Program-made: the position numbers and the translations under genes
Shown here: piece after piece, positions 14,463 through 31,241 of the stretch
Position numbering within the stretch: the first letter of the stretch is position 1
Layout: every line of letters begins with the position of its first letter
The notes under the pieces: generated by a model
What the model saw: only the letters and a program-made list of their open reading frames with translations
The model's database searches: none
What the model was told of the DNA's origin: nothing
Assembly: GCA_022616245.1 (NCBI GenBank)
Contig: JAKEFD010000169.1
Location: 8,384-72,383, forward strand
Direction of reading: 5' to 3'
DNA: 64,000 nt
Source of the DNA: Gemmataceae bacterium
Lineage (GTDB): Bacteria > Planctomycetota > Planctomycetia > Gemmatales > Gemmataceae

Positions 14463-17400
14463 TCACGGAACCCTGTGGACACGTCGGGTGCTCCAGATCT
14501 GCAGATGATTGTCGTTGCTCACGGAGACTAGGTCCGCGCCGTCCGGACTGAACGCCAGCGGCGATTTTTCGTGAAGTTGCGTGCGCAACGTCAGGACTTC
14601 GTGTCGCGTCTGCGTGTCCCACAATTTCGCGGTGCAGTCCGATGCGGCCGAGGCGAGCCGGCGACCATCGGGGCTCACGGCCAGCCCGTACAAGGTGCCG
14701 GTGTGCCCCCCAGTGACCGCCATGATTTCGCGGTTCGCTGTTACGTCCCAAAGGAACATCTTGCCTTCGACACCGCCCAGAGCAAGGAAGCGACCATCAG
14801 CGTTAAAGGTAATGCAAGTCATCGACGGCTGGAGCCCCAGGTCCGCGACAAGGCGACCCGTTTCCGTGTCCCACACTCGGGCGTACTTTCGGTCTTCGAC
14901 CGTCATGAAACGCCGCGCATCCGGACTCCAGACGACTTGCGTGCGGCCAGACCGCGGCAGCGTCAGCACGTCGTGCCCGGTCAAGAGGTCGCGCACGTGC
15001 AGTTCCGCATCCTTCGCATACGCTGTCAGCAAGCGCTTGCCGTCGGCGGAAAACGCCAGGCCGCGGACTTGGACTTGCCCCGCGTTGATCAACGGGATCT
15101 CTTCGGCACGGTCAAGGTCCCACAGCTTGGCAACGCCGGCGCCGTTTCGCCAGGCTACCTGTCGTCCGGCGGGACAAAATGCGAAGGAAGAGATCGGATT
15201 GCGAAGGGCCGGGTTGAACTTCTCGAGTGTGTGAGCCTTCTCCTTGACGAAATCCCAGAGACCGACCCCGCCCCAGGCATCGCCCCAGGCGAGCAGCCGT
15301 CCGTCCGGGCTGTAAGCCAGCGCATTGGCCTGCTGCGCGACTTGAACAGGAAGCGTTACGGCTTCCTGATTCCCGGCGGCATCCCACACTCGAACCAGTG
15401 AGTCGTGGCCCGCCGAGATCAGTCGTTTGCCGTCCGTCGAATAGACCAGGTCCCACACTATTCCACTATGGCCGTGTATTGTGTGCAGCCGGCGACGTTC
15501 CTTAACACTCCAGACTTGCATGTCGCCTTCCTGACCGGCCGAAGCGAGCCGTGCACCGTCGCCAGGGCTGAAACAAACGCTGGTAACGGACAGTTGATGG
15601 CCATTATGGCTGAACTCTTCTTTTTCCGTGAGCAAGCTGTGGACTCGAACCATGCTGTCGCGGCCGCAACTCGCCAGCAAGTTTCCATCGGGGCTGAACG
15701 CAAGGTCGAGCGTGCGGATGCCATGTCCCGGCCATTCGTACTCCGGTTTGCTCGCTTTGGCTTTCCAATCCCACACCCGGACGTGCCACGAGGCCGTCGC
15801 GAGGTAATGGCCGTCGGGGCTGAAGGCGACCTGGCAGATATCGCTTATGTCGGCCAGCCGGTTGTAGTACCAATTCCGGTCGCGTGTGTCCCAAACCTTG
15901 AGCCGCCTTGGACCGCCCGCCGCCAAATAGCGGCTGCTCGGGTCGAACGCAAGCGACCAGACGGCGACTTCGTCCGTGCTCTTGAAGTCCTTACCCCCGA
16001 ATTCGATGTCGGGCGGTAGCGGCGCGCCGGTTTGCGCGTCCCACAGCTTAATGATGCCGTCGTGCGAGCCGGACGAAGCCAGCAGTCGCCCGTCGGGACT
16101 GTAGGCCGCTGCCAGAGCCAAGTGCTTGTGTTTGCCGAGAGTGGTTTTGCGACCCGTGTCGAGGTCCCACAGGAGCACGCTGTAATCATGACTGACCGAT
16201 ACGACCTGATTGCGCTTGGGATGGACGGCGAGCGCCTGGACGATGTTCTCGTGTCCCGGGAAGGTACGCAGGGCCGAATGGCGCATACGGTCGAGATAGC
16301 GCCACTCCCAGGTGTCCTGTTGTTCCGGGGTGCAGGAGTCGAGCAGAGTTTCGGCACGTGCCGCGTTGTTCGCCAGCCATTCGCGGTGGGCCAAGGCGAC
16401 CTGAAAACGGTCGAGGGTCGCCACGCGCTCCGCCCGGGCCGTGCGCTCCTTCGCCAGCGCGTCTTTCGCCTGCTTCAAGCCGTCCTCGGCTCGCCACCAC
16501 AACCAACTGCCCGTGCCGACGCCCAAGGTGACAGCCAACAAAAGCAGCCCGGCCAGACTCGCCACCACGGGCTGGCGGCGCGTCCACTTCAGCACCTGGT
16601 GCAGCGGTCCAACGGGACGAGCACGAATCGGCTGGCCGTCCAGGAAGCGGCGCAAGTCTTCGGCCAGCTCCAACGCGGTGGCGTAGCGCTGGCGCGGCTG
16701 TTTGCTCAGGCACTTCAGACAGATCGTTACCAGATCGCGGGGGCACTTTGGCTGCAAGCGGCTCGGCGAGACCGGCTCGACCGTTTGCACCTGGAGCATC
16801 GTTTCCAGCGGGGTTTGGCCGCGGAACGGCGGCCGGCCCGTCAGTAGTTCGTAGAGAATCGCCCCAAGGCCGTAGACGTCGGTGGCCGCGCTGATCTCGG
16901 CGCATTCAGCTAGCTGTTCCGGCGCCATGTAACTGGGCGTGCCAAGCATGTCGCCGGTCTGGGTCGGATTCACTGCGCTCAAATGCATAAGCTTGGCGAG
17001 GCCGAAGTCGGTGATCTTGGGAATTGCAGATTGCAGATTGTCGATTGTCGATTGAAAGACGGCCAGACGGCTTCCGCTCGTCTCAATCTCCAATCCGCAA
17101 TCTGCAATCTGCAATAGTACGTTGGCCGGCTTGAGGTCGCGGTGAATGATGCCGCGCCCGTGGGCGTGGTGGATGGCGTGCGCCAGCCGTTCGACAAGCT
17201 GCGCCGCGGCATGGGGCGGCTGTGGCGTCCCAGCCAAGAACCGGTCCAGGCTGCCGCCGGCGACGTACTCCATGGTGAAATACGGCCGACCGTCCTGCTC
17301 GCCGACTTCGTAGACCTGCACGATGTGCGGATCCTGAAGCTGAGCGACCGCCTCGGCCTCGCGCTGGAAACGCTCTAGCTCCCCGGCGCCGGCGTGGGCG

Positions 17401-17732
17401 CCACCCGAGATCATCTTGAGGGCCACCAAGCGGTTGGGCCGGAGCTGCCGAGCCTTGTAGACGACGCCCATGCCGCCACGGCCCAGCTCGCCGAGCACTT
17501 CGTAGCCCGCGACGACGGGACGTTCCGGCGGCGGCGCACCTGTGCCGCGCACCAACGTGGAGGCTGCATCCGCGCGGCGCCGGTAATACGCATCCACTCG
17601 CAACAGCTCCCGGTGCAGCGCCTCGCGCAGCGGGACGGCCTCCGCGTCCAGATAATCCTCGACCCGCGGCAGTTTACCTGCCTTCCAGGCGGCCTCAAAG
17701 CGGTCGCAGACTTCGTCGATCCGCTCGATCAT
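14463..17732 (-). CDS. Ser/Thr protein kinase with TM segment and C-terminal WD40 repeats
   Basis: ATG at 17732 (MIERIDEV...). An alternative GTG at 17756 overlaps the sigma-factor stop (GTGA). Hanks motifs are GELGRGGMGVVYKA, HRDLKPANV, DFGLAK and APE, followed by many WD40 units. Confidence 0.9.
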   Translation of the reverse strand: MIERIDEVCDRFEAAWKAGKLPRVEDYLDAEAVPLREALHRELLRVDAYYRRRADAASTLVRGTGAPPPERPVVAGYEVLGELGRGGMGVVYKARQLRPNRLVALKMISGGAHAGAGELERFQREAEAVAQLQDPHIVQVYEVGEQDGRPYFTMEYVAGGSLDRFLAGTPQPPHAAAQLVERLAHAIHHAHGRGIIHRDLKPANVLLQIADCGLEIETSGSRLAVFQSTIDNLQSAIPKITDFGLAKLMHLSAVNPTQTGDMLGTPSYMAPEQLAECAEISAATDVYGLGAILYELLTGRPPFRGQTPLETMLQVQTVEPVSPSRLQPKCPRDLVTICLKCLSKQPRQRYATALELAEDLRRFLDGQPIRARPVGPLHQVLKWTRRQPVVASLAGLLLLAVTLGVGTGSWLWWRAEDGLKQAKDALAKERTARAERVATLDRFQVALAHREWLANNAARAETLLDSCTPEQQDTWEWRYLDRMRHSALRTFPGHENIVQALAVHPKRNQVVSVSHDYSVLLWDLDTGRKTTLGKHKHLALAAAYSPDGRLLASSGSHDGIIKLWDAQTGAPLPPDIEFGGKDFKSTDEVAVWSLAFDPSSRYLAAGGPRRLKVWDTRDRNWYYNRLADISDICQVAFSPDGHYLATASWHVRVWDWKAKASKPEYEWPGHGIRTLDLAFSPDGNLLASCGRDSMVRVHSLLTEKEEFSHNGHQLSVTSVCFSPGDGARLASAGQEGDMQVWSVKERRRLHTIHGHSGIVWDLVYSTDGKRLISAGHDSLVRVWDAAGNQEAVTLPVQVAQQANALAYSPDGRLLAWGDAWGGVGLWDFVKEKAHTLEKFNPALRNPISSFAFCPAGRQVAWRNGAGVAKLWDLDRAEEIPLINAGQVQVRGLAFSADGKRLLTAYAKDAELHVRDLLTGHDVLTLPRSGRTQVVWSPDARRFMTVEDRKYARVWDTETGRLVADLGLQPSMTCITFNADGRFLALGGVEGKMFLWDVTANREIMAVTGGHTGTLYGLAVSPDGRRLASAASDCTAKLWDTQTRHEVLTLRTQLHEKSPLAFSPDGADLVSVSNDNHLQIWSTRRVHRVP
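17023..17115. repeat. 93-nt imperfect palindromic element lying in frame inside the kinase catalytic domain
   Basis: Arms at 17023-17061 and 17079-17115 are built from attgcagattgcagattg-type short repeats. It encodes LQIADCGLEIETSGSRLAVFQSTIDNLQSAI between HRDLKPANVLL and PKITDFG. Confidence 0.75.
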
Positions 17733-17752
17733 GGTCGGCGTCAAGGGTGCGG

Positions 17753-18361
17753 TCACGGGGCGACCTCCTCTTCCCATTGCGTGCGGATGCGCTGGAGCTT
17801 GCGCTCGATGGTGCTCGGCGCGCAGTCGAGCTTGGCCGCGATTTCTTCGTTCGTGTAGCCTTCCATCTTCCACATTGCGATCGTGCGCAACTGATCTGTG
17901 TTCAGACGCGCGAGCAGCCGCCGGCATTCCTCAACGACCATCGCCGCCGATTCCGGCGTCGGTTCCCTGCTGACAAACCACTCGAACGGCGACTCGTCTT
18001 CCGCGCCTGCGGCCTTCAGGGCCGACTGACCGAGTACGGCGCCGCCGCCGCGTTTGAGCCGGTTCTCGTCGCGCATTTGGTCGAAGGCCTTGCGCGCGGT
18101 CAATGTGAACAGGAGCCGCCACAGATCGTCACGGTCGGCCAGCTGTGGAAAGCGGCCGGCTTCCGCGCCCCGGCAGAACGAGTCAAAGGCGCTCAGAGCC
18201 ACGTCTTCTTCATCGGCCGCCCGGCGACGGCTGTCCGGGAGTTTCGTGCGCGCCAGGCCGACCAGACGGTGGAAGTAGCGTTCCCACAACGGCTGGGCCG
18301 CGGCTTGGTCGCCGGCCTTCAGCAATTCTATCCAGCGGCTGACCGAGCCTTCGGAAGGCAT
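17753..18361 (-). CDS. ECF-type sigma factor (Sigma70_ECF / TIGR02999-like, kinase-associated type)
   Basis: ATG at 18361: MPSEGSVSRWIELLKAGDQAAAQPLWERYFHRLVGLAR...LRTIAMWKMEGYTNEEIAAKLDCAPSTIERKL. Confidence 0.85.
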   Translation of the reverse strand: MPSEGSVSRWIELLKAGDQAAAQPLWERYFHRLVGLARTKLPDSRRRAADEEDVALSAFDSFCRGAEAGRFPQLADRDDLWRLLFTLTARKAFDQMRDENRLKRGGGAVLGQSALKAAGAEDESPFEWFVSREPTPESAAMVVEECRRLLARLNTDQLRTIAMWKMEGYTNEEIAAKLDCAPSTIERKLQRIRTQWEEEVAP

Positions 18362-18476
18362 GGCAGGGCATCTCGCGCAGGCGAACGAGATCGCAACACC
18401 CGAATTGTAAGTGTGCCGGCGCGGACCTGCAACCTTCGCTTCTTGCCGGTTTCGACTTCCCGGCTTCCGGCGCGAC

Positions 18477-18540
18477 GATTTTTTTTTTGCGATCTGCTGC
18501 GGGGTTCGGCGGCGTTTTGGAGATGTCCCTTCGGACCAGG
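18477..18540 (+). promoter_or_regulatory. conserved leader/promoter block, copy A (upstream of hcp)
   Basis: A T-run, then tgcgggg...gcgg, then the perfect 17-mer gttttggagatgtccct (18514-18530). The block recurs at 20185-20244. Confidence 0.5.
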
Positions 18541-18576
18541 GCATTCTCGCCCGTTTACACACTGAGGAGGTTGAAA

Positions 18577-19065
18577 ATGGCGAACGTTGACTTCTTTCTG
18601 AAGCTCCAAGGCATTGATGGCGATGTGACCGACGACGCGCACAAAAACGCGATTGATCTCGACTCGTGGAGTTGGCGTGAGACCCAGTCCGGTACGCACG
18701 GCGGCGGCGGTGGTGGTGGCGCTGGCAAGGTGCAAATGCAAGACTTTCACTGCGTCGCGAAAATGAGCAAGGCCAGCCCCAAGCTGATGCTGGCCTGCGC
18801 CACCGGCCTGCACATCGAGGAAGCCAGCCTACTCTGCCGCAAGGCGGGCGGTAAGCAGCAAGACTATCTCACGGTGAGACTGCAGGACGTCATGATCACC
18901 AGCTACCAGACCGGCGGCAACGGGCATGGCGACATTGTACCGACCGATCAGTTCACCATGAACTTTGCCAAGATCGAATTCGTTTACAGGCAACAGAAGC
19001 CAGACGGCTCCCTGGACGGCGCCATCAAGACCGGCTACGACCTGAAGAGAAACACCCGGACCTAA
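18577..19065 (+). CDS. hcp: Hcp (type VI secretion tube protein, Hcp1 family)
   Basis: GAGGAGG then ATG 18577, 162 aa. MANVDFFLKLQGIDGDVTDDAHKNAIDLDSWSWRETQSGTHGGGGGGGAGKVQMQDFHCVAKMSKASPKLMLACATG...RKAGGKQQDYL... aligns by eye along its whole length with P. aeruginosa Hcp1 as I recall it. Confidence 0.9.
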   Translation: MANVDFFLKLQGIDGDVTDDAHKNAIDLDSWSWRETQSGTHGGGGGGGAGKVQMQDFHCVAKMSKASPKLMLACATGLHIEEASLLCRKAGGKQQDYLTVRLQDVMITSYQTGGNGHGDIVPTDQFTMNFAKIEFVYRQQKPDGSLDGAIKTGYDLKRNTRT

Positions 19066-19184
19066 GAGCGAACGGACCCAAATGTAGGGAACTCGCTGCC
19101 CGACCGATGGCTGCGCTCGCATTTGACGCCGATACGTGGAAGAGAATCCATACGACTTGCACGATTCCGCTTCGGAGAACTCTC

Positions 19185-20072
19185 ATGGTGATCGAAAAAA
19201 CGCCGGCTGACCCGCTGCCGACAAATTACAGACCGACCGGAGGAAGTCCCTACAGATTCGGCACGCGCTCGAAGGAAACCTGGCAGTCAATCGCCGACGA
19301 CCACGGGCTGGGAGTCTGGGAACTGATCGAGTTTAATTTCCCCACCGTCGCCAGGATCGCGAACTTGCAGGAGAAGTGCGCGGTCGTCAACTGGTACTTG
19401 CGGCGCAACGTCGGCTGCACGATCAGCAACGACGGCAAGAACTGGAGTTTCGAGGGAGCCACCGGTCAGATCTACCTGCCGGCCATCAAGCCGCCGGACA
19501 GCACACTCAAACGCACCGTGCTCGACATCCTCGCCGACCCGGTGCTGCCCGGGCTGACGATTTCGTTTGGCGGTCGGCAGTTCTACATGGGACGCCTGCT
19601 GGCGCGCGTGGCTGGGCGGATCATTGACGACGACATTACGGTACAGTTCGACAGCGCCTTGCAGGGCTGGGCCGAATACGACCACAACGATGACCGTATC
19701 TACACGGGCTTCGAATGCAACCCGACGCTGGAACAGCGGGGCGGCGTCGTCCATGAGGCAGTCCACGCCGGCCTTGACCTGCGCGCGGAGGGGACGATGC
19801 TTGTCGTGGAGGACGAGTCCCTGGCCTACGTGACCCAGTCGTATTTCCTGTACAACAAGTTGCCCGCCGACTGGCGGCTCACAGGTGAGTGGGCCGAGGA
19901 AGACCAGGTCTTCAAGCTCGCGTGGGACATTGCCGACGTGCTATTCAAGCGCCGCCAGCCAGAGGAGCTGCTCTGGAACGCGCTCGATAGCGCGATCCGC
20001 CGACATCCAAAGTACAGGGCGCGGGCCACCGACGAGACCGGGTACAACGGCGTCCGGCGCAAAAGCGGATAG
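19185..20072 (+). CDS. hypothetical protein with LysM-like N-terminal segment and HExxH motif (candidate effector)
   Basis: ATG at 19185 preferred. YRFGTRSKETWQSIADDHGLGVWELIEFNFP resembles LysM. GGVVHEAVHAGLD is an HExxH motif followed by acidic residues. Confidence 0.6.
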   Translation: MVIEKTPADPLPTNYRPTGGSPYRFGTRSKETWQSIADDHGLGVWELIEFNFPTVARIANLQEKCAVVNWYLRRNVGCTISNDGKNWSFEGATGQIYLPAIKPPDSTLKRTVLDILADPVLPGLTISFGGRQFYMGRLLARVAGRIIDDDITVQFDSALQGWAEYDHNDDRIYTGFECNPTLEQRGGVVHEAVHAGLDLRAEGTMLVVEDESLAYVTQSYFLYNKLPADWRLTGEWAEEDQVFKLAWDIADVLFKRRQPEELLWNALDSAIRRHPKYRARATDETGYNGVRRKSG

Positions 20073-20184
20073 CCGGCAGGTGTGCCGGAAACGGGCACGC
20101 GGCTCGCTGCAGCCTTTGCAGCCCCTGGTCGCGTCAAGCCAGATTCGTCATCGAGCCTTTCGACGGCACTGCCGACAGCGCTTT

Positions 20185-20244
20185 GATTTTTTGCCAACTC
20201 TTGCGGGGGTACGCGGAGTTTTGGAGATGTCCCTGGTGACCCAG
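20185..20244 (+). promoter_or_regulatory. conserved leader/promoter block, copy B
   Basis: Same architecture as 18477-18540, with the identical 17-mer at 20218-20234. Confidence 0.5.
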
Positions 20245-20345
20245 CGACATGCTTGGTCGTCACGCTTCGGCACTTACGGGGCGCGATGCGACTGCGCTGC
20301 ACTGGGCGACAACCAACACTAACTGTTTTCAAGGAGAAAGAGACC

Positions 20346-21044
20346 ATGTCACGCCAACAATCACCAAAAACTCGACCGGCTCTGGAAGTCCTGGAGGACC
20401 GGCTGTGTATGTCGGCCGCCGGCCTGCCGGAGGCCGTGCTGATGCTCGCGCCGCAGGTCGAGCAACAGGCCTCTGACAACAACCACGGCACCCATGTCGC
20501 CGGCACAATCGCGGCGATCGGCAATAATGGCGTGGGTGTCAGCGGCTGGGGCTCGTCAAGTTATCAGTGGGGCTTCTACGGCAGTGTCTCACCGGCCCAC
20601 GTGGACTACTTCCTGAAACTCAAAAGCATCGACGGTGATGTGTCCGACTCGGCATGGTCCAGTCACGAAGGGGCATTCATGGGCAACCTCTTTTCCGCGA
20701 CCCCGGTCGCCAGGGCCGGCACGAACTACTTCGACGGTCGCTTTCTGAGAGGCGACGACTTGACGCGCGAGCAAACCGTGGACAGCGGCGGCAAGGGCAG
20801 CGATCTACTTCTCGGTGGAGTCGGCCAGGACCGGATTGAGCTCGAGAGCTGGGGCCTTGGAGTGAGTAACACTTCGAATCACAGCGCCGCCAGTATTGGG
20901 GGCGGCAAGGTGCAGATGCAGGACGTCCACTTCGCCGCCAAGTCTAGCCCGGGCGATCTCGACCTGGTCGCCGACGAGGGCACAGCATCGCAGAGTGTGG
21001 GCGACCTGCCTGACATCCCACTCTTCCGCGCCCCGAAGAAATAG
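20346..21044 (+). CDS. patchwork ORF: LEDRxxMSA N-terminus, subtilase His-motif fragment, split Hcp N-terminal half, two RTX nonapeptides
   Basis: AAGGAG then ATG 20346. It contains RPALEVLEDRLCMSA; DNNHGTHVAGTIAAIGNNGVGVSG (S8 His box only); HVDYFLKLKSIDGDVSDSA (Hcp residues ~3-20); GGKGSDLLLGGVGQDRI (RTX); and IELESWGLGV...GGGKVQMQDVHFAAKSSP (Hcp residues ~25-65). It may be a decayed gene. Confidence 0.5.
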   Translation: MSRQQSPKTRPALEVLEDRLCMSAAGLPEAVLMLAPQVEQQASDNNHGTHVAGTIAAIGNNGVGVSGWGSSSYQWGFYGSVSPAHVDYFLKLKSIDGDVSDSAWSSHEGAFMGNLFSATPVARAGTNYFDGRFLRGDDLTREQTVDSGGKGSDLLLGGVGQDRIELESWGLGVSNTSNHSAASIGGGKVQMQDVHFAAKSSPGDLDLVADEGTASQSVGDLPDIPLFRAPKK

Positions 21045-21130
21045 TGATCGGTGAGGAGCCGGGCCGCCGGGACCAAACCGGTGGCTTCCTTTTTTGGCCG
21101 TAGACACGTTTTTCAACGAGAGGTAATCCA

Positions 21131-21634
21131 ATGGCGCACAAACGACCAAACTTTTTGTCATTGTGGGGCAAGTACCAGGACTTCCGCGCCGATCCGCATC
21201 CCATTGATGGGGTCTCGGCCCAATGTGCTGTGCGCATGAGCATGACACTGGCGGTAGTCGGCCTGTACTCAAAAAGCCGATTCAAGAGCGTCATTACCGA
21301 TGGAGCGACGGTCGAAGGCTGGGCCATCCGCGCCGAGGAACTCTATCAATACCTCCGCAACACGACAGTGATGGGACCGGCGGAGCTGGTGCCTCCTTCG
21401 GCCGTCTGGGGCAAATGGGGCCTCATCTATCTGCGCAATTGCTGGGTGCGCTCGGGCCAATCTTACGACTATCGTAGCGGTGATCATATCGACCTCGTCT
21501 TTCCCAACGGCGGCGCGGTGGGGGCCTATCCCGTCATCGCCTCCGCTCTCTTTTACCCGGGACAAGTAGACAACAGCATCATTAACTTCTGTCGTGACGG
21601 CAAAGTGCGCTTTTGGGAATGCCCGATGGCGTAA
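21131..21634 (+). CDS. Tae4-like papain-fold peptidoglycan amidase (T6SS amidase effector family 4-like)
   Basis: 167 aa. RPNFLSLWGKY, AQCAVRMSMTL (candidate Cys), IRAEELYQYL, GKWGLIYL, GDHIDLV (candidate His) and a C-terminal VRFWE match the Tae4 family pattern as I recall it. Confidence 0.65.
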   Translation: MAHKRPNFLSLWGKYQDFRADPHPIDGVSAQCAVRMSMTLAVVGLYSKSRFKSVITDGATVEGWAIRAEELYQYLRNTTVMGPAELVPPSAVWGKWGLIYLRNCWVRSGQSYDYRSGDHIDLVFPNGGAVGAYPVIASALFYPGQVDNSIINFCRDGKVRFWECPMA

Positions 21635-21675
21635 GCGGAACGGAGGAGGGCGGAACGGAGGAGGGCAACGGAGAG
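21635..21675. repeat. tandem repeat gcggaacggaggagg x2 plus a partial third unit
   Basis: Units at 21635-21649 and 21650-21664, with a partial unit at 21665-21675. It starts right after the Tae4-like stop. Confidence 0.8.
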
Positions 21676-21678
21676 CCG

Positions 21679-21710
21679 TCCCCTCGCCCTTAGGGAGAGG
21701 GGTTGGGGGA
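21679..21710. repeat. G-rich dispersed repeat (cccctcgccct + tagggagaggggttggggg)
   Basis: Related copies lie at 21947-22000, 52624-52662 and 53641-53668. Confidence 0.65.
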
Positions 21711-21754
21711 TTCCGCAGCGTCACCTTTTCCGGAGCTTCAGATTTTTCTCCCGG

Positions 21755-21828
21755 TTGACGCTCCGGAGCAGCGGCACAAGTGATTATTTTGGAGGTAGTT
21801 GCGACACAGAAATGCTCCGGAGCGTCAA
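21755..21828. promoter_or_regulatory. 15-nt perfect inverted repeat built around the palindrome GCTCCGGAGC
   Basis: ttgacgctccggagc (21755-21769) and gctccggagcgtcaa (21814-21828). A third partial tccggagc is at 21729-21736. Confidence 0.5.
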
Positions 21829-21946
21829 GCGTCACACAGGTACCCCCCAACATAATAGCAACAGCTTACTGATTCATTGGTGCTGCAAAACTATCAACCG
21901 CAGCAAAGTCAAAATCCAAGCCTCGTGCCGGGGGTGAGCCGAAAAA

Positions 21947-22000
21947 CTCCCCTCGCCCTCACCCCCAACCCCTGACCGCTGACCCCTCGCCCTCGAAGGG
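21947..22000. repeat. two more cccctcgccct units; cccccaacccct complements 21699-21710
   Basis: cccctcgccct occurs at 21949-21959 and 21983-21993. 21963-21974 is the reverse complement of aggggttggggg at 21699-21710. Confidence 0.6.
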
Positions 22001-22020
22001 CCAAGATTGGTAACAGCCTA

Positions 22021-22105
22021 GCGCTACCTATTTTCTCGCCGTAAGTCCTTTCACCTCAAGGCATTTTGAAAATAGGTCGCGCGACACACCCACACCCCAC
22101 CCTCG
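22021..22105. repeat. non-coding repeat, copy 2 (see 5236-5318)
   Basis: The core 22038-22098 aligns to the reverse complement of 5241-5301 (46 of 61 positions, no gaps). Confidence 0.6.
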
Positions 22106-22448
22106 TGTTACCAAATGTCAATCGATCAAACGGCAGTTCGCCCCGGTTGATGGCAAAGTGGCCCCGGATTCCCGACATCGGTGCCAACAAAACGAGCAAA
22201 GCATGCCGGCACTGGCGCATTCCGTGCCGTGCATTTCAGGGTAGGTCGCGTTTCAAATTTCGAGGAAGTGAAACGTGGGTGGATAATACGCAACTACATG
22301 GAAGAATGCGACTTGCGGAGAAAAATGACCAACCCTTATTCAAATTGGTGAATAGGCGGGGAAATGAAACGTTTCCGAAAAGCGCCGATCTACTAGCTGT
22401 CGGCCGCTATCTGCTTGCTCTCGTCGCCGCTCGCGGTAAACCGGCACC

Positions 22449-24150
22449 ATGCTCACCGACTCCGCCCTGCGTTGGAAGGTCGATGCCCTCTGGGACAAGC
22501 TCTGGTCCGGCGGGCTGTCAAATCCGCTCGACGCCATCGAACAGCTTTCCTTCCTCCTATTCTTCAAGCGCCTTGAGGAACGTGAGCAGGATGCCGAGCG
22601 GGCCGCGCGTCTGCGCGGGAAGAAGCATCAGCCGATTTTCACCGACCAAACGCTGCGCTGGTCGCATTGGACGCAGCTTCCCGCCGCCCAGGCCCTCAGC
22701 CATGTCAAGGAAAAAGTGTTCCCGTTCATCAAGACCCTCGGCGGCGAAGGCGGCTCGTTCGCCGAGCAGATGGCCAACGCGGAGTTCAAGATCAACAAGC
22801 CCAGCCTCTTGATCGAAGCCACGAAGGCCATCGACGAGATGCAGATTTCCAGCCAAAACCAGGACGTGCAGGGCGACCTTTACGAATATTTGCTCTCCAA
22901 GCTCAACACGGCGGGACAGAACGGCCAGTTCCGCACGCCGCGGCACATCATCCGCATGATGGTCAAGCTGGCCGATCCGCGGCCCGGCGACCGTGTGTGC
23001 GATCCCGCCGCGGGCACCTGCGGCTTCCTGGTCGGCGCCTATCAGCACACCCTCGAAACGCATACTCGGCCCGACAACCTCTCGTTTGACGAGGACGGCT
23101 ACCCGCACCACCTGATCGGCGACCAACTCTCCGCTGAGGAGCACAAGTTTCTCCAGACGAAGGGCTTGACCGGCTACGACAACGACTCCGGCATGACCAT
23201 GCTGCGCATCGGCTGCATGAACCTCATGCTGCACGGCATCGCCTCGCCCAACTTCCGACTCCTTGTCCAAGGCCTTCAATGAAGAACGCCTGTACGACGT
23301 GGTGCTGGCCAATCCGCCCTTCAAAGGCGCGATCGACTCCGCCGACGTCAATCCAACGCTCCCCACGAAGTGCAAGAAAACCGAAATCCTCTTCTTGCAC
23401 CTGTTCCTGCGCCTCTTGGAAAACGGCGGCCGGGCCGCGGTCATCGTGCCCGACGGCGTGCTATTCGGCTCGTCGCGCGCCCACGTCGAGGCGCGCAAGA
23501 AGCTGATCGAGGAGAACCGCCTGGACGCCGTCGTCTCCATGCCCTCGGGCGTGTTCCGTCCCTATGCCGGCGTCTCGACGGCCGTGCTCGTTTTCACCAA
23601 GGGGGCCGCCACGGAGCGAATTTGGTTCTACGACATGGAGCACGACGGCTTCTCGCTCGACGACAAGCGGCAAAAGCTCGCCGACAACGACATTCCCGAC
23701 CTCTTGGAGTGCTGGAAGAAGCGGAAGGACGTGAAGTTCCAGCAGAAGCGCACCCAGCGCCTCGCCGACCTACAACAGCAAATCGGCCCGCTCAAGGCCG
23801 ACCGCCTGGAGCACCACGCCACCATCCACCGGCTGCGCTTCGAGGAAGTGATCGCTGCCGACGGCTCTGCGGAGAAAGCGCGGATGGCCCGCGAGCAGGG
23901 CGAAAAGGAGTTGTCCGAGTTGCAAGCCAAGATCGCCCCGCTGCAACAAGAGATCAACCAGCTCGGCCGCCAGTTTTGGGTGAGTGAGGACCAGGTAAAG
24001 GCAAACAATTACGATCTGTCGGCGAGCCGGTATCGGCAGGTGGAGCAGGACGACGCGTTTTACGAGAGGCCGGAGGTGACGCTGGCGCGGATGCGGAGCT
24101 TGGAAGCGGTCGCAGCCGACCTTGTTACCCAGCTCGAAGAGGCGTTATGA
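22449..24150 (+). pseudogene. hsdM: type I R-M methyltransferase subunit HsdM, reading frame broken near 23256
   Basis: ORF 22449..23282 carries the N-terminal domain and DPAAGTCGF. ORF 23263..24150 carries DSLSKAF...LANPPFKG and the C-terminal half. The frames differ by +1. The join (...HGIASPNFR / DSLSKAF...) falls between the AdoMet and NPPF motifs. Confidence 0.8.
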
Positions 24151-25337
24151 AGACTGTCCATGCCTTTGCCCTGGGCGAGACTCTCAAGAGCGCCGCACCC
24201 GGCTTTGCTTGCGGCGATAATGTGGAGGTTGGGTTTGTCCAGCTTCGCATGAACAATGTCGCGGTTGACGGCTCCCTCAACTGGTCCGCCATTCGCCGCG
24301 TCCCTTCGAGCCATGGGAGAGCGCAGAAATACCGGTTAGCGCCCGGAGACGTCGTCTTCAATCACACGAACAGCCCTGAGCTTGTGGGAAAGACAGCGCT
24401 CTTCACCGGATTCAAAGAGCCGGTTTTGTACAGCAATCACTTCCTCCGTCTGCGAGTAGATGAATCGAAGCTGCATCCCCGCTACCTTGCACTGTGGCTC
24501 AACTTTCAGTGGAAGCATCGCGTTTTCGAGCGGCTTTGCACTCAATGGGTCAATCAGGCTACAGTCCGTCGCGACGATCTGCTTGACCTCAGCATCGAGC
24601 TGCCGGACCTCGCCGATCAAAAGCGCATCGCGGCGATCTTGGAGAGGGCGGACCGTTTGCGGCGGCTGCGGCGGTATGGGCTGGAGATGGCGAGGGCTTT
24701 CACCCCTGCTGTTTTCAACGAAGTCTTCGGCGACCCGATATCCAATGCTAAAAAGTACGACCGAAGTAAACTTAGCGCCATTTGCACAAACATCACAGAT
24801 GGGACACACGACACGCCCGAACGCGTGAGTGCCGGTGTGCCATTCATCACGTCGAAGAACATTCGCCCCTTTGAAATCGATCTAACGGACTTGGAGTTTG
24901 TAACTCCCGAGGTTCATCGCGAGATCATCAAACGATGTAATCCACAGTTCGGGGACGTACTCTACACCAACATCGGCGTAAACGTCGGGAATGCCGTTGC
25001 GAACTGTTTGCCTTTCGAGTTTAGCCTGAAAAACGTCGCGCTCATTCAGCCGAATAGGGGCAAACTTGAGCCGAGATTCATCGAGTCGCTACTTAACCAC
25101 ATCCGGTTCAAAGAGTCCATTTTGAACGTGTCGTCCGTTGCTGGTGCGCAAAAGTTCGTATCGTTGGATGTACTTCGAGGCGTTGAGATTATCGTTCCTC
25201 CTTTGCCACTTCAAAAACGCTTTGCACTGATCGCGGACCGTCATGAAAGGTCGGAAAAGGTCCACCGCGAAGCCCTGCGTCAAGGCGAGCACGTGTTTCA
25301 AACGCTGCTGCACCGGGCGTTCACGGAGGGGGTCTGA
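24147..25337 (+). CDS. hsdS: type I R-M specificity subunit HsdS (two target-recognition domains)
   Basis: 396 aa. The start overlaps the hsdM stop (ATGA). The central conserved region is LPDLADQKRIAAILERADRLRRLR, and the C-terminal conserved region is LPLQKRFALI...FQTLLHRAF. Confidence 0.9.
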   Translation: MKTVHAFALGETLKSAAPGFACGDNVEVGFVQLRMNNVAVDGSLNWSAIRRVPSSHGRAQKYRLAPGDVVFNHTNSPELVGKTALFTGFKEPVLYSNHFLRLRVDESKLHPRYLALWLNFQWKHRVFERLCTQWVNQATVRRDDLLDLSIELPDLADQKRIAAILERADRLRRLRRYGLEMARAFTPAVFNEVFGDPISNAKKYDRSKLSAICTNITDGTHDTPERVSAGVPFITSKNIRPFEIDLTDLEFVTPEVHREIIKRCNPQFGDVLYTNIGVNVGNAVANCLPFEFSLKNVALIQPNRGKLEPRFIESLLNHIRFKESILNVSSVAGAQKFVSLDVLRGVEIIVPPLPLQKRFALIADRHERSEKVHREALRQGEHVFQTLLHRAFTEGV

Positions 25338-26987: not shown

Positions 26988-27410
26988 TCAAGCATTCTTA
27001 TCCGTCAGCAAGATCGTGAATCCTTCCTGGCGGAAATGATCGTCATGGGTCAAGACTTCTTGCAAGCCATGGGAGCGCATTGTCTCCATGGAAATGCAAT
27101 CCGTCATGCTGTATTGCTTGTCGGTTCGGGACTGGTAAAGACGAAAGCCGCTCAAGAATGATTCGCGCGTTTGCGGTACGACCGACACGTTGGGATTGCT
27201 CATGATTTTCTGAACGAGTTTGCCCGCCGTATCTCGAAGAAGCGCGCCTTTGTTGGAAAAGAAGGTCAAGAATTCTACCAGTATCTCGTCCGTGGTGAGG
27301 ATATGAACGGGGCCGAGGCGCGAGGCGACGTTGCGGGCCGCTTGATGCCATTCATCGCGCGGGTTCGCGAGCGCGATCCAGTAGAAAGTGTCGGCGAATA
27401 CCGCTTTCAC
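26988..27410 (-). CDS. PIN-domain ribonuclease toxin (VapC-like)
   Basis: 140 aa with a GTG start overlapping the upstream stop (GTGA, 27410-27407). It has FADTFYWIAL, TTDEILVEF, SMTDCIS and LTHDDHF. Confidence 0.85.
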   Translation of the reverse strand: MKAVFADTFYWIALANPRDEWHQAARNVASRLGPVHILTTDEILVEFLTFFSNKGALLRDTAGKLVQKIMSNPNVSVVPQTRESFLSGFRLYQSRTDKQYSMTDCISMETMRSHGLQEVLTHDDHFRQEGFTILLTDKNA

Positions 27411-28330
27411 ACGCCCTCCCGTGAAGGTCCATGAAGGTATTCGTCATGCCGCTGGGCCGCATCCGTGGGCAGCTTGCCGAACTCTTCCGGGGGAACTGTA
27501 GCGAGTACATCGGCGAACTCTTCCCAGATCGGCTTGGCCGCGGCGTCAAATGGAATTCCTCCTTCGGGCAAAAGCACGACTCTTTCCACTTCGACGATCT
27601 TTTGCAGGCGCCCATCCTGACCGAACTGGCCACGCCCGATGACCCGGAGTTTGGCCGTGGCGTGTTGTTTCAAAGCCGTGGTGATGAGGTCCTCGTCTTG
27701 GGGGCGAAAGGCCGCTTCGACCTCTTGGCCCGCGCCGAGCTGAAGGGCCATGCGCGGCTTGCTCACCCTGGCCATGGTCACCGGCCCCGCCACGTCCACA
27801 AAGGCTTGATAGCTCGGTGAGAGCCATTCGGTCAACCGGGCCCGGACCACGGCGTCATAGCGCGACGGAGCGGCGGCCTGGGCCGGCTGTTGCTCAATCC
27901 ATTCATCTTCGCGCAGGGTGTTGCCGTAATCTTCGAACAGCGCCAAGAGGTGTTTGGGAAATTCGTCCGGAAGCGCTTGGTTGTTCGCGGCGGCATCAAT
28001 GGTCATGGCGACGAGTTCCACGGCCTCATCCAGCTCATCACCCTGGAAACCAGGAAACTGGCTTTCCTCGTGCGGGGCCAACGCGCGTACCAAAGGAATG
28101 GTGGCGCAGTTGCGCGCAACTTCGTAGAACTTCAGCCCAAGTGAATCCTCAAAGTTTTTCGGCAATCGTTCTCTTCCGGGGTGATAGCGCCGCCAAAGCT
28201 CCTTGGCGAGCTCGACCAACAAAGTCTGGTAGCGAATCAATTCCAGAAGGACATCGAGTTCGACTCCGTGGTCTTCAAAGCGGCCTCCATGGAAAGAATG
28301 GCTTACGATACGGCGATGGGCTTCGTTCAT
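27407..28330 (-). CDS. 307-aa protein of unknown function with an antitoxin-like C-terminal tail
   Basis: The last ~40 aa (KPIWEEFADVLATVPPEEFGKLPTDAAQRHDEYLHG) resemble short PIN-associated antitoxins. I do not recognise the ~260-aa N-terminal part. Confidence 0.7.
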   Translation of the reverse strand: MNEAHRRIVSHSFHGGRFEDHGVELDVLLELIRYQTLLVELAKELWRRYHPGRERLPKNFEDSLGLKFYEVARNCATIPLVRALAPHEESQFPGFQGDELDEAVELVAMTIDAAANNQALPDEFPKHLLALFEDYGNTLREDEWIEQQPAQAAAPSRYDAVVRARLTEWLSPSYQAFVDVAGPVTMARVSKPRMALQLGAGQEVEAAFRPQDEDLITTALKQHATAKLRVIGRGQFGQDGRLQKIVEVERVVLLPEGGIPFDAAAKPIWEEFADVLATVPPEEFGKLPTDAAQRHDEYLHGPSREGV

Positions 28331-28490: not shown

Positions 28491-31241
28491 TTAGGCCGCC
28501 AGCGTCTCCGTCAGCTCCAGCAGCTCGCGAATTTCCTGCGGCGTGAAGAAGCGTTCCACCGCGTTTCGCCCAAACACGGTCAGCGGCGGCTCATACAAGT
28601 CTGCCTCAACGAGCCGGCGCTTGTTCAGGAATACTTCCTGAACGGAGCGCAGAAACCGAATCTGATCGGCATTGTACTCGTGTGCGGCGATGAAGCGCTC
28701 GAAGGCCCGCCGGACGACCTGGCCGTAATCGGGCAGCGTCTCCAGGGCCAACACGTGACGGAGGAAGCCGAGGAAGCTGTCCACCTTCAAGCCATACGCT
28801 TTTTTGATGTTGGCGGGGGAGACCGCCAAGTCGCCGCCGGCCAGCTCGCGGATGTGGATGCGCTCCAGGTCGACTAATTGCTCGTCGGTTACCTCCTGGC
28901 CCTGGCGGATGGCTTCGAGGGCCGGGTGATTGGCGACGATTTCGACCACGCGGCTTTCGACGCGCTGGCGGTACTCCTCAACCAAGATTTGCTTGCCGCC
29001 TTCGCCGATTGATACGACGCCGCGGGCTTCGATGAAATCGGGCAGGTCGATCTTGAGGAAGGCGCTGGGGCGGTTGCGGCGATTCTTCATCTCGGGCGCG
29101 AGGTCTTGGATCAGCTGCGTCAGCTCTTTTGGCGAAGCTTCCGCGAGCGTCTGCGACAAAGCCAGGTTGACGCTCGGCTTCTTGCCGGGGTCGTCCAAAA
29201 TGTCGGGCGGCAACAGGCTCACGTCCTCGGCAATGGAGGTCAACAGGTCCGGACGCGGCTCGTACTTGAGCATTTGCAGATTGAGCCGTTCGCACTTATG
29301 GGTAAAGGTTTCCGCAGCCACGTCCACGTCAGCAGCGAAGCGCAAAAGTGGCGCGACCCGCAGGCGCAGGAATTCGGCCTTGGCCGGCGTCATGAGGTTC
29401 CAGAAATCATCTTTCCAAACGGACTCAACTTCGTGGAGCACCTTCTTGACGGGAAACGATTCGCGCGGAATGCGGGCGATCTGGCCGCGCAGATCGGCGA
29501 CGGCCTGCGGGAAGACTTCGCCTTGTGGTTGGTCCACGGTCGCCTCGGCCAGCTTCAAGCGCGTGTTGAACAGCGAAACCAGGACCGGCATGTCGGCGGG
29601 CGGCTTATCGTCGGCCTTCTTGTTGAAGTCGTTTTGCCAAAAGTCGATGATCTTGAATTCGGTTTTCTTGCCGTCGGGCAGCCGATCGTAGTACTTGCAG
29701 GCGGCGTGATTGCGGGTGCCGCGGCCGATCATCTGCCAGAGCTTGATGCGCGACTGCACGGGCTTCATGAACACGAGATTCACGACTTCGGGAACGTCGA
29801 TGCCGGTATCGAGCATGTCCACGGAGATGGCGATGCGCGGCAGGTTGTTTTTCTTGAACTTGGTGATGAGGCCGTCGCCATAGCTGCCGTCGCGGACGCG
29901 CTCGGTGCTTGAGGTGATGACCTGGGCCAGGCCGACATGCTGCGGGAACATGTCCTCGAAGACTTCTTGGATGCGGCGCGCGTGCTCCATGGTCATTGCG
30001 AAGACGATGGTCTTGCCCGGCAGTTGGCCCGACTGGTCCTTGAGGCAGACCTCCATCACTTCTTCCCACTGCTTGCGCAACGTGTCGCGATTGCTCACGG
30101 ATTTTTCGAGGTCGGTGCCGGAATAGTCGATGGTGTCGGGATCGATCCCTTGTTCGACGAGGGCGTTCTTGTCCTCCTCGCTGAGGTCAACGCCCTTGAT
30201 GCCTTTGCGCTGGAAGCCGGTCTGGGCCTGGTAGAGGCTGAAATCGACGAGGACCCGGTCATTGATCGCCTGCTGGTAGTCGTAAAGGAAAGTCGGCACG
30301 TTGCCGTCGCAGCCAAAGACGCGGAAAGTATCGCGTTCGATGAAGTTGGCCGGCGTGGCGGTCAGGCCGATCATGCGGGCGTCGAAGTATTCGATCACTT
30401 CCGTGAAGCGCTTGACGATCGAGCGGTGCGCTTCATCGAGGATGATGAGATCGAAAAAGCCGGGGCTGAATTGAGAGTAACACAGGCTCATCGTTTGTTC
30501 GGTGGCGACGAACAGGCGCTTGGTTTTGTCGACGTTGTAGGTATAGATGCGGTCGCGCGGCTCGGCGGCCAGGTGCCGCTTGAACCCATCCGTCAGCCCC
30601 TGATCCACGAGCGCATCGCGGTCCGCGAGAAAGAGGACCTTCTGAGCTTGGCGGGCGCGCAGAAACAGGTCGATAAGGGCCATCGTCGTCCGCGTTTTGC
30701 CGGTGCCGGTCGCCATGACCAAGAGGGCGCGGCGCTTGTTGGCGGCGAACGCTTCGGCGACTCGGCGGATGGCTTCGTGCTGATAGGAACGGTCGACAAT
30801 CGAAGTGTCGATCGGCGTCGCAGCCAGCGACAGACCGTTTTGACGAATGAAATGCAGGCGCGCTAAGTCTTGCGGAGTGAAAAAGCCGGCGACGAGGCGC
30901 GGATTGGCCAGGCCCACTTCCCAGAAATGTGTGGCGTGGCCATTAGTCATGAATCCAAACGGCGCGAATGATTGGTGTTTAGCGATCTCGGTGACGTAGT
31001 GGCGCAGTTGCTCGTCGGCGTCGCGCGCGTTGCGGCTTGTCCGTTTGGCCTCGACCACGCCAAGGACTTGGCCGTCGGGCTGATAAAGACAATAATCGGT
31101 GACTCCATTCCAGGGCTCGGCGTCGTAGCCATCGACAGGAATCTCACGGCGAACCTGCGTCTTGTCATCGAGCCGCCATTCCGCTTTGCGTAATTGCGGG
31201 TCAATGAGGCGTATGCGCGTCAGGGCTTCGTTGAGATCCAT
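28491..31241 (-). CDS. hsdR: type I restriction enzyme R subunit HsdR (EcoEI-like)
   Basis: 916 aa. N-terminal nuclease motif (DYCLY...VVEAKR), helicase motifs (ATGTGKT, DEAH), and a long C-terminal domain. Confidence 0.92.
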   Translation of the reverse strand: MDLNEALTRIRLIDPQLRKAEWRLDDKTQVRREIPVDGYDAEPWNGVTDYCLYQPDGQVLGVVEAKRTSRNARDADEQLRHYVTEIAKHQSFAPFGFMTNGHATHFWEVGLANPRLVAGFFTPQDLARLHFIRQNGLSLAATPIDTSIVDRSYQHEAIRRVAEAFAANKRRALLVMATGTGKTRTTMALIDLFLRARQAQKVLFLADRDALVDQGLTDGFKRHLAAEPRDRIYTYNVDKTKRLFVATEQTMSLCYSQFSPGFFDLIILDEAHRSIVKRFTEVIEYFDARMIGLTATPANFIERDTFRVFGCDGNVPTFLYDYQQAINDRVLVDFSLYQAQTGFQRKGIKGVDLSEEDKNALVEQGIDPDTIDYSGTDLEKSVSNRDTLRKQWEEVMEVCLKDQSGQLPGKTIVFAMTMEHARRIQEVFEDMFPQHVGLAQVITSSTERVRDGSYGDGLITKFKKNNLPRIAISVDMLDTGIDVPEVVNLVFMKPVQSRIKLWQMIGRGTRNHAACKYYDRLPDGKKTEFKIIDFWQNDFNKKADDKPPADMPVLVSLFNTRLKLAEATVDQPQGEVFPQAVADLRGQIARIPRESFPVKKVLHEVESVWKDDFWNLMTPAKAEFLRLRVAPLLRFAADVDVAAETFTHKCERLNLQMLKYEPRPDLLTSIAEDVSLLPPDILDDPGKKPSVNLALSQTLAEASPKELTQLIQDLAPEMKNRRNRPSAFLKIDLPDFIEARGVVSIGEGGKQILVEEYRQRVESRVVEIVANHPALEAIRQGQEVTDEQLVDLERIHIRELAGGDLAVSPANIKKAYGLKVDSFLGFLRHVLALETLPDYGQVVRRAFERFIAAHEYNADQIRFLRSVQEVFLNKRRLVEADLYEPPLTVFGRNAVERFFTPQEIRELLELTETLAA

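Follow-up and report, generated by a model that had tools for sequence, protein, structure and literature searches.

Why should a planctomycete carry a gene for the tube protein of a type VI secretion system (T6SS) in a region that has no other gene of such a machine? The question is raised by a contig of a Gemmataceae bacterium, of which a stretch of 64 kb (hereafter the window) was analyzed. Four genes on the + strand form an islet within positions 18577-21634, on which the gene calls of the source contig and the list of open reading frames (ORFs) agree: hcp, two genes named here ORF2 and ORF3, and a gene for a Tae4-like peptidoglycan amidase. The preliminary description of this DNA had put three small genes behind hcp on the same strand, and the gene calls bear out this placement. 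On balance we hold it probable that Hcp is the carrier of the Tae4-like amidase, and perhaps of ORF2, for a T6SS encoded elsewhere in the genome, and that this module is co-regulated with ORF3, a gene of the "motif-collage" type.

Hcp covers the whole Pfam profile PF05638 (positions 1-129 of 129) with 129.8 bits against a cut-off of 23.5 (E 9.5e-38). Its best solved match is Hcp1 of P. aeruginosa, PA0085 (1Y12), to residues 6-164 of which its residues 4-161 align with E 5.9e-39. This end-to-end alignment and the profile match agree with the Hcp1-family gene that had been proposed at this place. Under the NCBIfam model TIGR03344 the protein stays below the cut-off (43.3 versus 58.9 bits). It consists of a single domain without leader and is collinear with solved Hcp proteins. 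By its sequence it is an ordinary tube-type protein of the Hcp1 kind, for which stacking of hexameric rings and secretion would be expected.

The gene has a nearly identical counterpart (98%) in the sister metagenome-assembled genome (MAG) GCA_022614915.1, at locus L022, positions 432-920. No synonymous difference separates the two genes; all six differences are non-synonymous and confined to both ends. The region upstream of hcp is 93% identical. Because the synonymous divergence (dS) is zero in hcp and about 0.22 in the adjoining ORF3 and amidase genes, the core of hcp appears to have undergone recent gene conversion or transfer.

If Hcp is a tube protein, then we can ask: Is the lineage able to carry the rest of the machine? 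Scanning the genome collection with Hcp gave six loci. The closest relatives outside Gemmatales, 55% and 51% identical, are from MAGs of Pyrinomonadaceae (L028) and Lacunisphaera (L029). L028 has a complete T6SS cluster, in which Pfam recognizes TssB, C, E, F, G, M, VgrG and PAAR and ORF inspection ClpV, and L029 repeats its T6SS gene order, as judged by ORF size and N-terminal sequence only. In a Gemmatales MAG (L027) an hcp gene 57% identical to that of the window is followed by an ORF of 160 residues, an ImpE/TagJ gene (Pfam E 5.5e-40) and a second hcp. A T6SS sheath has been tabulated for Limnoglobus roseus, a member of Gemmataceae (PMC9230969), and T6SS genes have been noted in Rhodopirellula and freshwater Planctomycetacia (PMC5394234, PMC6461901). 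With an Hcp of the tube kind, in a lineage capable of having the machine, a satellite islet is the most economical reading. The preliminary description had left the choice between such a satellite and some undescribed use of these proteins; the T6SS-cluster relatives of Hcp, the ImpE link in L027 and the Limnoglobus sheath favor the satellite.

What would this Hcp carry? The product of the last gene matches PF14113 at 35.1 bits, above the gathering score of 27, over profile positions 3-101 of 125. Its C32 (AQCAVRMS) aligns with the catalytic cysteine of the solved Tae4 (NACPIRMS in 4HFK) and Ssp1 (NTCAVRMS in 4BI3), and its H119 (GDHIDL) with the catalytic histidine of the same two proteins (GGHIDL in 4BI3). 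The motifs CA[VI]RMS and G[DG]HIDL are common to the amidase and the solved Tae4/Ssp1, while overall sequence similarity to solved Tae4 members is marginal (E 0.045-0.32). Among the eight homologues covering the site, seven keep the catalytic cysteine. The gene is under purifying selection (dN/dS 0.13-0.33), and no signal peptide was seen by eye. The protein thus belongs to the Tae4 family and keeps the Cys-His pair of the papain-like fold; cleavage of peptidoglycan at gamma-D-Glu-mDAP and export dependent on T6SS and Hcp are predicted for it. The Hcp and Tae4 assignments of the preliminary description are thus both above Pfam thresholds, and for the second the aligned C32 and H119 speak as well. 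The closest homologue, P0013 (L019 528-1031, 81% identical), has glycine in the place of the catalytic cysteine (AQGAVRMS), which may reflect an error of sequencing or mark this copy as inactive.

ORF2 is a putative minimal zinc metallopeptidase. HEAVH (H190-H194, with H190, E191 and H194) and E211 are invariant in all nine aligned sequences, and the N-terminus reads like LysM (V.TGDSW..LA...GR.DPWDLIEFNF), so that the earlier label of a LysM-like/HExxH protein stands at the level of sequence. Pfam and NCBIfam gave no match, and so no LysM or peptidase profile match, and a search of PDB with the nine-sequence profile gave none either. The family is rare, with 12 homologous clusters among 5.8e9 proteins. 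The AlphaFold2 (AF2) model has a predicted local distance difference test (pLDDT) of 78.8. Its best Foldseek match is selecase (E 0.23, probability 0.47-0.54), followed by ArdC, BlaR1, Wss1 and LysM domains with probabilities of at most 0.41. All these matches are non-significant (E >= 0.23) and agree among themselves in pointing to minimal metallopeptidases and LysM domains. ORF2 lacks a signal peptide by eye and is a candidate cell-wall-directed effector.

It is useful to compare the islet with its relatives. In the sister MAG (L022/L026) the order is hcp, collage gene, Tae4-like gene; ORF2 is absent from between hcp and the ORF3 homologue there, which makes it a clean presence/absence cassette of 1.06 kb. 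On a contig of 5.7 kb (L019) we find a collage gene, a Tae4-like gene (81% identical), an ORF of 78 residues, another collage gene and a gene like ORF2 (34% identical). In three loci (window, L022 and L019) the Tae4-like gene comes right after a collage gene, and in two the collage gene itself comes after hcp. When metagenomes were scanned with the alignment of the amidase, no islet appeared beyond L019, which is the same as L032. Gene order in these loci suggests a module built from swappable cassettes.

Some small proteins of the related loci deserve mention. In L019 the Tae4-like gene is followed by a protein starting with MAKDRFY(P/R)xKPHVN (1138-1374), and a longer version with an internal repeat (L033 1192-1710) stands after a HExxH protein that adjoins the collage gene P0024. 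In the L019 and L033 islets the MAKDRFY protein may serve as a partner or confer immunity. As an immunity candidate for the window it was rejected, having no homologue there. The 160-residue ORF after hcp in L027 (1299-1781) has no Pfam match and by eye a peptidoglycan-binding-like motif, VDGLYGPTTQRWILEYQR; it may encode another small wall-directed Hcp cargo.

A further link between the genes of the islet is an element of 55 nucleotides, present before hcp and before ORF3 (Table 1). The two copies are 80% identical, and their 15-mer core, for which 0.07 occurrences would be expected in 64 kb, is present exactly twice. L022 has the element too, before hcp and before the collage gene, and L019 has it before the second collage gene. 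In L022 an insertion of 114 nucleotides in the 5′ region of hcp (L022 284-403 versus window 18542-18549) separates the element from the ribosome-binding site (RBS). Because the distance from element to start codon varies, and because an Rfam scan of 17500-22600 found no RNA element, a promoter or operator fits better than a leader RNA, and we infer that the element is one of these. No sigma-70 promoter consensus was found in 18200-22500. The copies before hcp and ORF3 suggest co-regulation, possibly by the divergent pair of extracytoplasmic function (ECF) sigma factor and kinase. From its context the ECF sigma factor is a possible regulator of the islet, and a homologous gene lies upstream of hcp in L022 too.

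Table 1. Coordinates of the islet, its signals and the neighboring genes in the window.
Feature	Position	Strand	Description
Ser-Thr-kinase-WD40 gene	14463-17756		1097 aa; same operon as the ECF sigma gene, which comes first
ECF sigma factor	17753..18361	-	202 aa; PF07638 Sigma70_ECF, E 8.8e-44; divergent from hcp
55-nt element, copy 1	18483..18537	+	TTTTTTGCGATCTGCTGCGGGGTTCGGCGGCGTTTTGGAGATGTCCCT...; 40 nt before hcp start codon
hcp (tssD)	18577..19065	+	Hcp1 type, 162 aa; T6SS inner-tube / effector-carrier protein
ORF2	19185..20072	+	295 aa; LysM-like N-terminus and HExxH; putative minimal zinc metallopeptidase
55-nt element, copy 2	20187..20241	+	105 nt before ORF3 start codon
ORF3	20346..21044	+	"Motif-collage" protein, 232 aa
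ORF3 module 1			Planctomycete cell-surface leader RPALEVLEDRLCMSAAG, N-terminal
ORF3 module, S8 His box	20484-20507		
ORF3 module, DJ-1/PfpI-like	20544-20567		GWGSSSYQ
ORF3 module, Hcp beta1	20601-20621		VDYFLKL
ORF3 module, HEGAF			After Hcp beta1
ORF3 module, NYFDGRFLR	20724-20750		
ORF3 module, RTX-like	20796-20831		GSDLLLGGVGQD
ORF3 module, Hcp beta2-3	20904-20930		GGGKVQMQDVHF
ORF3 module, GDLDLVAD tail			C-terminal
Terminator-like GC hairpin and T-run	21061..21087	+	10 pairs, 7 GC; tail CCTTTTTTGG
Tae4-like amidase	21131..21634	+	167 aa; Tae4-family (NlpC/P60-like) peptidoglycan amidase; PF14113 match
Perfect tandem duplication	21635-21664		GCGGAACGGAGGAGG; right after amidase stop codon
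Inverted repeat	21752-21831		19 nt, 95% complementary, 42-nt loop; ~100 nt past the tandem duplication
hsdM, first ORF	22449-23282	+	HsdM_N and first third of N6_Mtase
hsdM, second ORF	23263-24150	+	Remainder of N6_Mtase; overlaps first ORF
hsdS	24147-25337		Follows hsdM
PDC-M32A protein	27407-28330	-	307 aa; PADLOC candidate defence family PDC-M32A, E 6.6e-46; no Pfam domain
hsdR	28491-31241	opposite to hsdM	

How might the module work as a T6SS satellite? By analogy with Hcp1-Tse1 of P. aeruginosa and the Ssp (Tae4) effectors of Serratia, hexamers of Hcp would take up the small amidase, and possibly ORF2 as well, within the lumen. Hcp would stabilize this cargo and carry it out upon firing of a distant sheath/baseplate machine, and the exported enzymes may then cut the peptidoglycan of neighboring bacteria.

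Several points weigh against this scheme. Among the 30 largest other ORFs of the 64 kb, none has a Pfam domain of sheath, baseplate, membrane complex, VgrG or PAAR. A tblastn search of the window, for which L027-L029 supplied TssB, C, E, F, G, M, VgrG, PAAR and ImpE as queries, matched only hcp itself, the Hcp-like bits of ORF3 and a ClpB, in keeping with the earlier statement that no other T6SS gene is near. The ClpB is an AAA+ protein at 1843-4443; it was considered as ClpV and rejected, since it passes TIGR03346 (ClpB) with 1411 bits and stays below the cut-off of TIGR03345 (ClpV1). The absence of an immunity gene had also been claimed, and rightly: no plausible ORF for a Tai4 candidate exists on either strand in 21635-22448, so no immunity candidate is visible downstream of the amidase, and none stands beside the amidase homologues in L014 and L018. 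Such a lack is atypical for Tae-Tai pairs. The homologues in L014 (a Pirellulales genome) and L018 (an unclassified metagenome contig) have no hcp within 10 kb, and the subfamily, 66-81% identical across Gemmataceae and Pirellulales, is unusually conserved for an antibacterial toxin. In the sister MAG L022 the amidase gene is cut off after codon 92. Every ORF2 homologue detected outside Gemmataceae stands alone in housekeeping-gene surroundings without neighboring hcp, and with its 33 kDa ORF2 would be a large cargo for the lumen of Hcp. Within the islet a terminator-like hairpin sits between ORF3 and the amidase gene. The link between Hcp and cargo, as first proposed, is therefore upheld by the arrangement of the islet and weakened by the ORF2 and Tae4-like homologues that occur elsewhere without hcp as neighbor.

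The closest known systems show the same mixture of likeness and difference. The H1-T6SS of P. aeruginosa, with Hcp1 and lumen-bound Tse1/Tae1, Tse2 and Tse3, is like the islet in the collinear Hcp and in the small amidase without signal peptide, a layout that one would expect of a cargo effector with Hcp as its chaperone. However, the islet has no sheath, baseplate, VgrG, PAAR or ClpV gene in 64 kb and no immunity gene, its host is a planctomycete, and its cargo binding and export are putative. The Tae4-Tai4 pairs (Tae4 of Salmonella and Enterobacter; Ssp1/Ssp2-Rap of Serratia) resemble the islet amidase in Pfam match, catalytic Cys and His and size (167 aa), whereas the latter is only marginally similar in sequence, has no downstream immunity gene and belongs to a highly conserved and often hcp-free subfamily. 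Proteobacterial auxiliary hcp/vgrG clusters, such as those of V. cholerae and the vgrG loci of Agrobacterium, also have, apart from the main cluster, a carrier gene followed by variable cargo cassettes, to which the presence or absence of ORF2 corresponds in the islet, but normally together with vgrG, adaptor and immunity genes, while the islet consists of hcp and cargo only. The collage gene has no counterpart in the described auxiliary clusters.

What, then, is ORF3? It had been called a patchwork ORF with a second, split Hcp N-terminus, which is right as a description and misses the conserved, leader-bearing family to which the protein belongs. Pfam reports an S8 His-box match of 28 residues (E 1.1e-5, profile positions 49-76 of 288) and a weak Hcp match. 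Two Hcp-like segments lie in the frame of ORF3 (20595-20654 and 20826-20948). A decayed full-length second hcp or S8 gene was considered for this place and rejected, as Hcp residues 65-162 match nothing there in any frame; ORF3 is not a second or broken copy of hcp. In NCBI both ORF3 and its relative P0023 are named "S8 family serine peptidase". Because only 28 of the 288 profile positions are covered, this name is a misannotation. A subtilase identity was also rejected on the Asp-His-Ser triad, of which ORF3 and every other family member have the His box alone.

All modules of ORF3 are in one frame, and a good RBS (AAGGAGA) precedes its ATG. Compared with the full-length relative P0023, ORF3 has a dN/dS of 0.53, with dN below dS (Fisher p 0.018). 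An AF2 prediction from a seven-sequence alignment gave pLDDT 40.8, with no fold and no secondary structure, an outcome that is suggestive only because the alignment is shallow. Between the window and L022 the common blocks of the gene are 80-90% identical in DNA, and the two versions differ by insertions or deletions of whole modules. The private module of the window ORF3 comprises Hcp beta1 and HEGAF (46 aa) and that of the L022 version DGSVRF and GEMALKGK (41 aa). Repeats of 4 nucleotides (GGCA, CTTG) flank these differences, which suggests microhomology-mediated deletion from a longer ancestor. The Hcp modules may derive from the adjacent hcp or from chains of six Hcp domains; in short-BLAST the local Hcp type came nearest to the beta1 module, and other Hcps to the beta2-3 module. 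Our tentative guess is that ORF3 is exported and has an accessory role, expressed together with hcp.

Relatives of ORF3 were few in a word-indexed search (8), and exhaustive HMMER on 1.84 billion representatives gave 58 at E <= 1e-3. Most of the 58 are large S8 proteases that match at the His box only, leaving about 16 small collage proteins. NCBI, JGI, ENA and Logan assemblies, independent of one another, all contributed members, and one, P0025, is identical in four metagenomes. ORF3 and the ~15 other members each have 3-12 modules in a single frame behind the leader. A module is 10-25 residues long and copies the most conserved segment of another family. Module order varies among the proteins, and pieces of Hcp can stand in non-native order. 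The Hcp modules are beta1 (AQVDYFLKLKGIDGExTDD), beta2-3 (IELESW...GGGAGKVQMQDFHF) and the C-terminal strand (PTDQFxLNFxKIEF). S8 proteases are represented by the His box HGTHVAGTIAAIGNNGVGV, and DJ-1/PfpI by three motifs (VFVGGWGSSMYQYA, CHGVTVLAWARVDGV and VVVDGRIITGQ) that match a full DJ-1 gene adjoining P0026 in L023. Further modules are of metzincin (HELGHxLGLRHE), RTX (nonapeptides) and DUF1559 (the C-terminal DGSVRF motif) origin, and some recurrent ones are unassigned: GTNYFDGRFLRxDDLxxEQ, NEYKYVxVRR, GEMALKGKxILQN, HEGAFxGNLFSA and GYIRVKKL. In P0024 Pfam recognizes fragments, each of 15-35 residues, of S8 (twice), RTX, DUF1559 (profile positions 241-266 of 268) and, among the metzincins, four families. 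The three collage proteins next to Tae4-like genes have the modules NYFDGRFLR, GGGKV..QD.HF and GDLDL.AD in common. Collage genes without hcp occur in L023, beside a leader-bearing DJ-1 gene and an RTX gene, and in L033, beside the HExxH protein; L023, L033 and L034 have collage members without the amidase.

The leader, RPxLExLExRLCxSAA (LE.LE.R type), is present in 13 of the 16 members. Pfam PF07595, the planctomycete N-terminal cell-surface motif, is reportedly the one to which a study by Studholme in 2004 is tied. ORF3 gave no match to PF07595 at E <= 1, and its leader RPALEVLEDRLCMSAAG fits the published consensus by eye; a neighbor of the family member in L023 (307 aa) does match PF07595 (E 4.8e-4). 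Full-text literature search on the leader motif (PF07595) found no description of collage-type proteins, nor do we know of one, and we regard the family as previously undescribed and its members as small, probably unfolded proteins. The consensus of the cell-surface motif is RRLxxExLExRxLLA (PMC8567305). Surface proteins with PF07595 described from the Tuwongella proteome in the same paper are like ORF3 in the N-terminal motif as read by eye. However, those carriers are normal multi-domain enzymes or adhesins, whereas the ORF3 family consists of fragments of 10-25 residues in variable order, with no predicted fold.

Leader-bearing proteins with whole Hcp domains were found outside the window, among the matches of the HMMER search. 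P0033, P0034 and P0035 (~1,050-1,125 aa) have a leader of planctomycete type (e.g., RLEDRRLLA) followed by full Hcp domains in tandem, exactly six by Pfam in P0033 and in P0034, which would be enough for a single-chain Hcp hexamer. One of the three is annotated merely as "Hcp family effector", and a literature search for tandem Hcp domains gave only unrelated uses of "hcp". Could collage proteins be a functional class, exported and disordered, shuffled together from Hcp and enzyme motifs, co-regulated with hcp and working by mimicry? We think this unlikely, and its two conceivable routes are speculation. Collage proteins might complement strands of Hcp rings, as Hcp-borne cargo or as modulators of assembly, or they might be decoys that keep the homologous proteins of competing cells from folding or assembling properly.

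The surroundings of the islet have their own bearing on its history. The host is a Gemmataceae MAG, and NCBI product labels read "Gemmataceae bacterium". The window has ECF sigma factors of PF07638 type, a sulfatase and HEAT-repeat proteins, a content of planctomycete type, as well as several Ser/Thr kinases and sigma factors that are fusions with WD40 propellers. This content fits the planctomycete host that had been suspected. Proteins identical to Hcp and the amidase are encoded on contig CCZJPD010000147.1 (113,810 bp) of the MAG GCA_973786865.1, on a 23-kb contig of GCA_022616695.1 and in two Logan assemblies of SRR16971108/9. The window corresponds to positions ~78,325 down to 14,326 of CCZJPD010000147.1, and a further 49.8 kb of that contig lie outside it. 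The tandem duplication and the inverted repeat behind the amidase gene are both within a stretch of 800 bp without a convincing gene. Beyond it lies a type I restriction-modification locus, which includes the PDC-M32A protein beside a helix-turn-helix gene; the gene calls of the source contig add a PIN-domain gene at this place. Because of these genes the right flank looks like a defence island. The split hsdM is probably a frameshifted, phase-variable or dead gene. None of the four islet proteins has a PADLOC match to known anti-phage defence families. Phage origin was rejected, as a search of IMG/VR gave no relatives, either for Hcp or for the amidase.

Could Hcp act here without any T6SS? 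In a planctomycete-specific use, hcp and the leader-bearing collage protein would be the functional pair: Hcp rings or Hcp-derived strands would act in the envelope or at the surface, the amidase would remodel the cell wall and the 55-nt element would co-regulate the genes. The pair is indeed the conserved core of the window and L022, where ORF2 comes and goes, and the element stands before both kinds of gene in three lineages. ORF3 has a leader of RRLxxExLExRxLLA type (PMC8567305), P0033-P0035 suggest that Hcp rings may be exported by another route, and the absent immunity gene and the hcp-free Tae4-like homologues point the same way. We nevertheless consider this use distinctly unlikely, for the Hcp in question is a leaderless single-domain Hcp1 whose nearest relatives are tube proteins of complete T6SSs, the T6SS is present in Gemmataceae and Gemmatales, and interaction of ORF3 with Hcp is putative. 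No more credible, in our estimate, is the view of the islet as a decaying and now useless remnant of T6SS cargo that had arrived by horizontal transfer in a variable region resembling a defence island, with ORF3 as in-frame debris left from several secreted-protein genes by microhomology-mediated deletions. The intact hcp, with zero synonymous change from the sister MAG, and the intact amidase of the window (dN/dS 0.13) do not look like decay. Random debris would not give 3-12 in-frame modules behind a leader in ~16 proteins, together with an RBS for ORF3, and P0025 is identical in four separate metagenomes. Signs of decay are nonetheless present in ORF3, which has no predicted fold and is weakly constrained, its whole-module deletions with 4-nt repeat flanks, the truncated amidase gene of the sister MAG, the homologue with Gly for the catalytic Cys, the hsdM gene in two ORFs and the flanking synteny, which is unlike between close relatives.

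The gap left by the immunity gene invites another thought, that ORF3 itself is the missing immunity protein, exported and neutralizing the amidase in the periplasm. Known Tai4 proteins are compact, helical and encoded downstream, while for ORF3 no fold is predicted; collage proteins are 34-54% identical against 81-93% for the amidases, unlike co-evolving effector-immunity pairs, and other members of the family live at amidase-free loci (L023, L033, L034). With these facts the thought seems to us hardly tenable, even if the collage gene is immediately upstream of the Tae4-like gene in all three islets, ORF3 is the sole islet product with an export-type leader and the Tae4-adjacent collage proteins have three modules in common.

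We therefore keep to Hcp as a probable carrier for a distant T6SS. The theme of orphan hcp and effector genes is itself known; new is its occurrence in Gemmataceae, and in a form that lacks the immunity gene. As a module of this kind the locus extends a familiar T6SS theme to a family in which T6SS biology is essentially unstudied and supplies two candidate cell-wall effectors without an obvious immunity partner. If the collage proteins are debris kept in frame, they would reveal an unusual mode of gene decay or recombination in large planctomycete genomes. If they are functional, they would represent an unrecognized way of building proteins, possibly with a mimicry-based activity. Should such mimicry be true, the leader-bearing chains of six Hcp domains and the collage proteins together would mean a planctomycete Hcp biology that goes beyond the fired tube.

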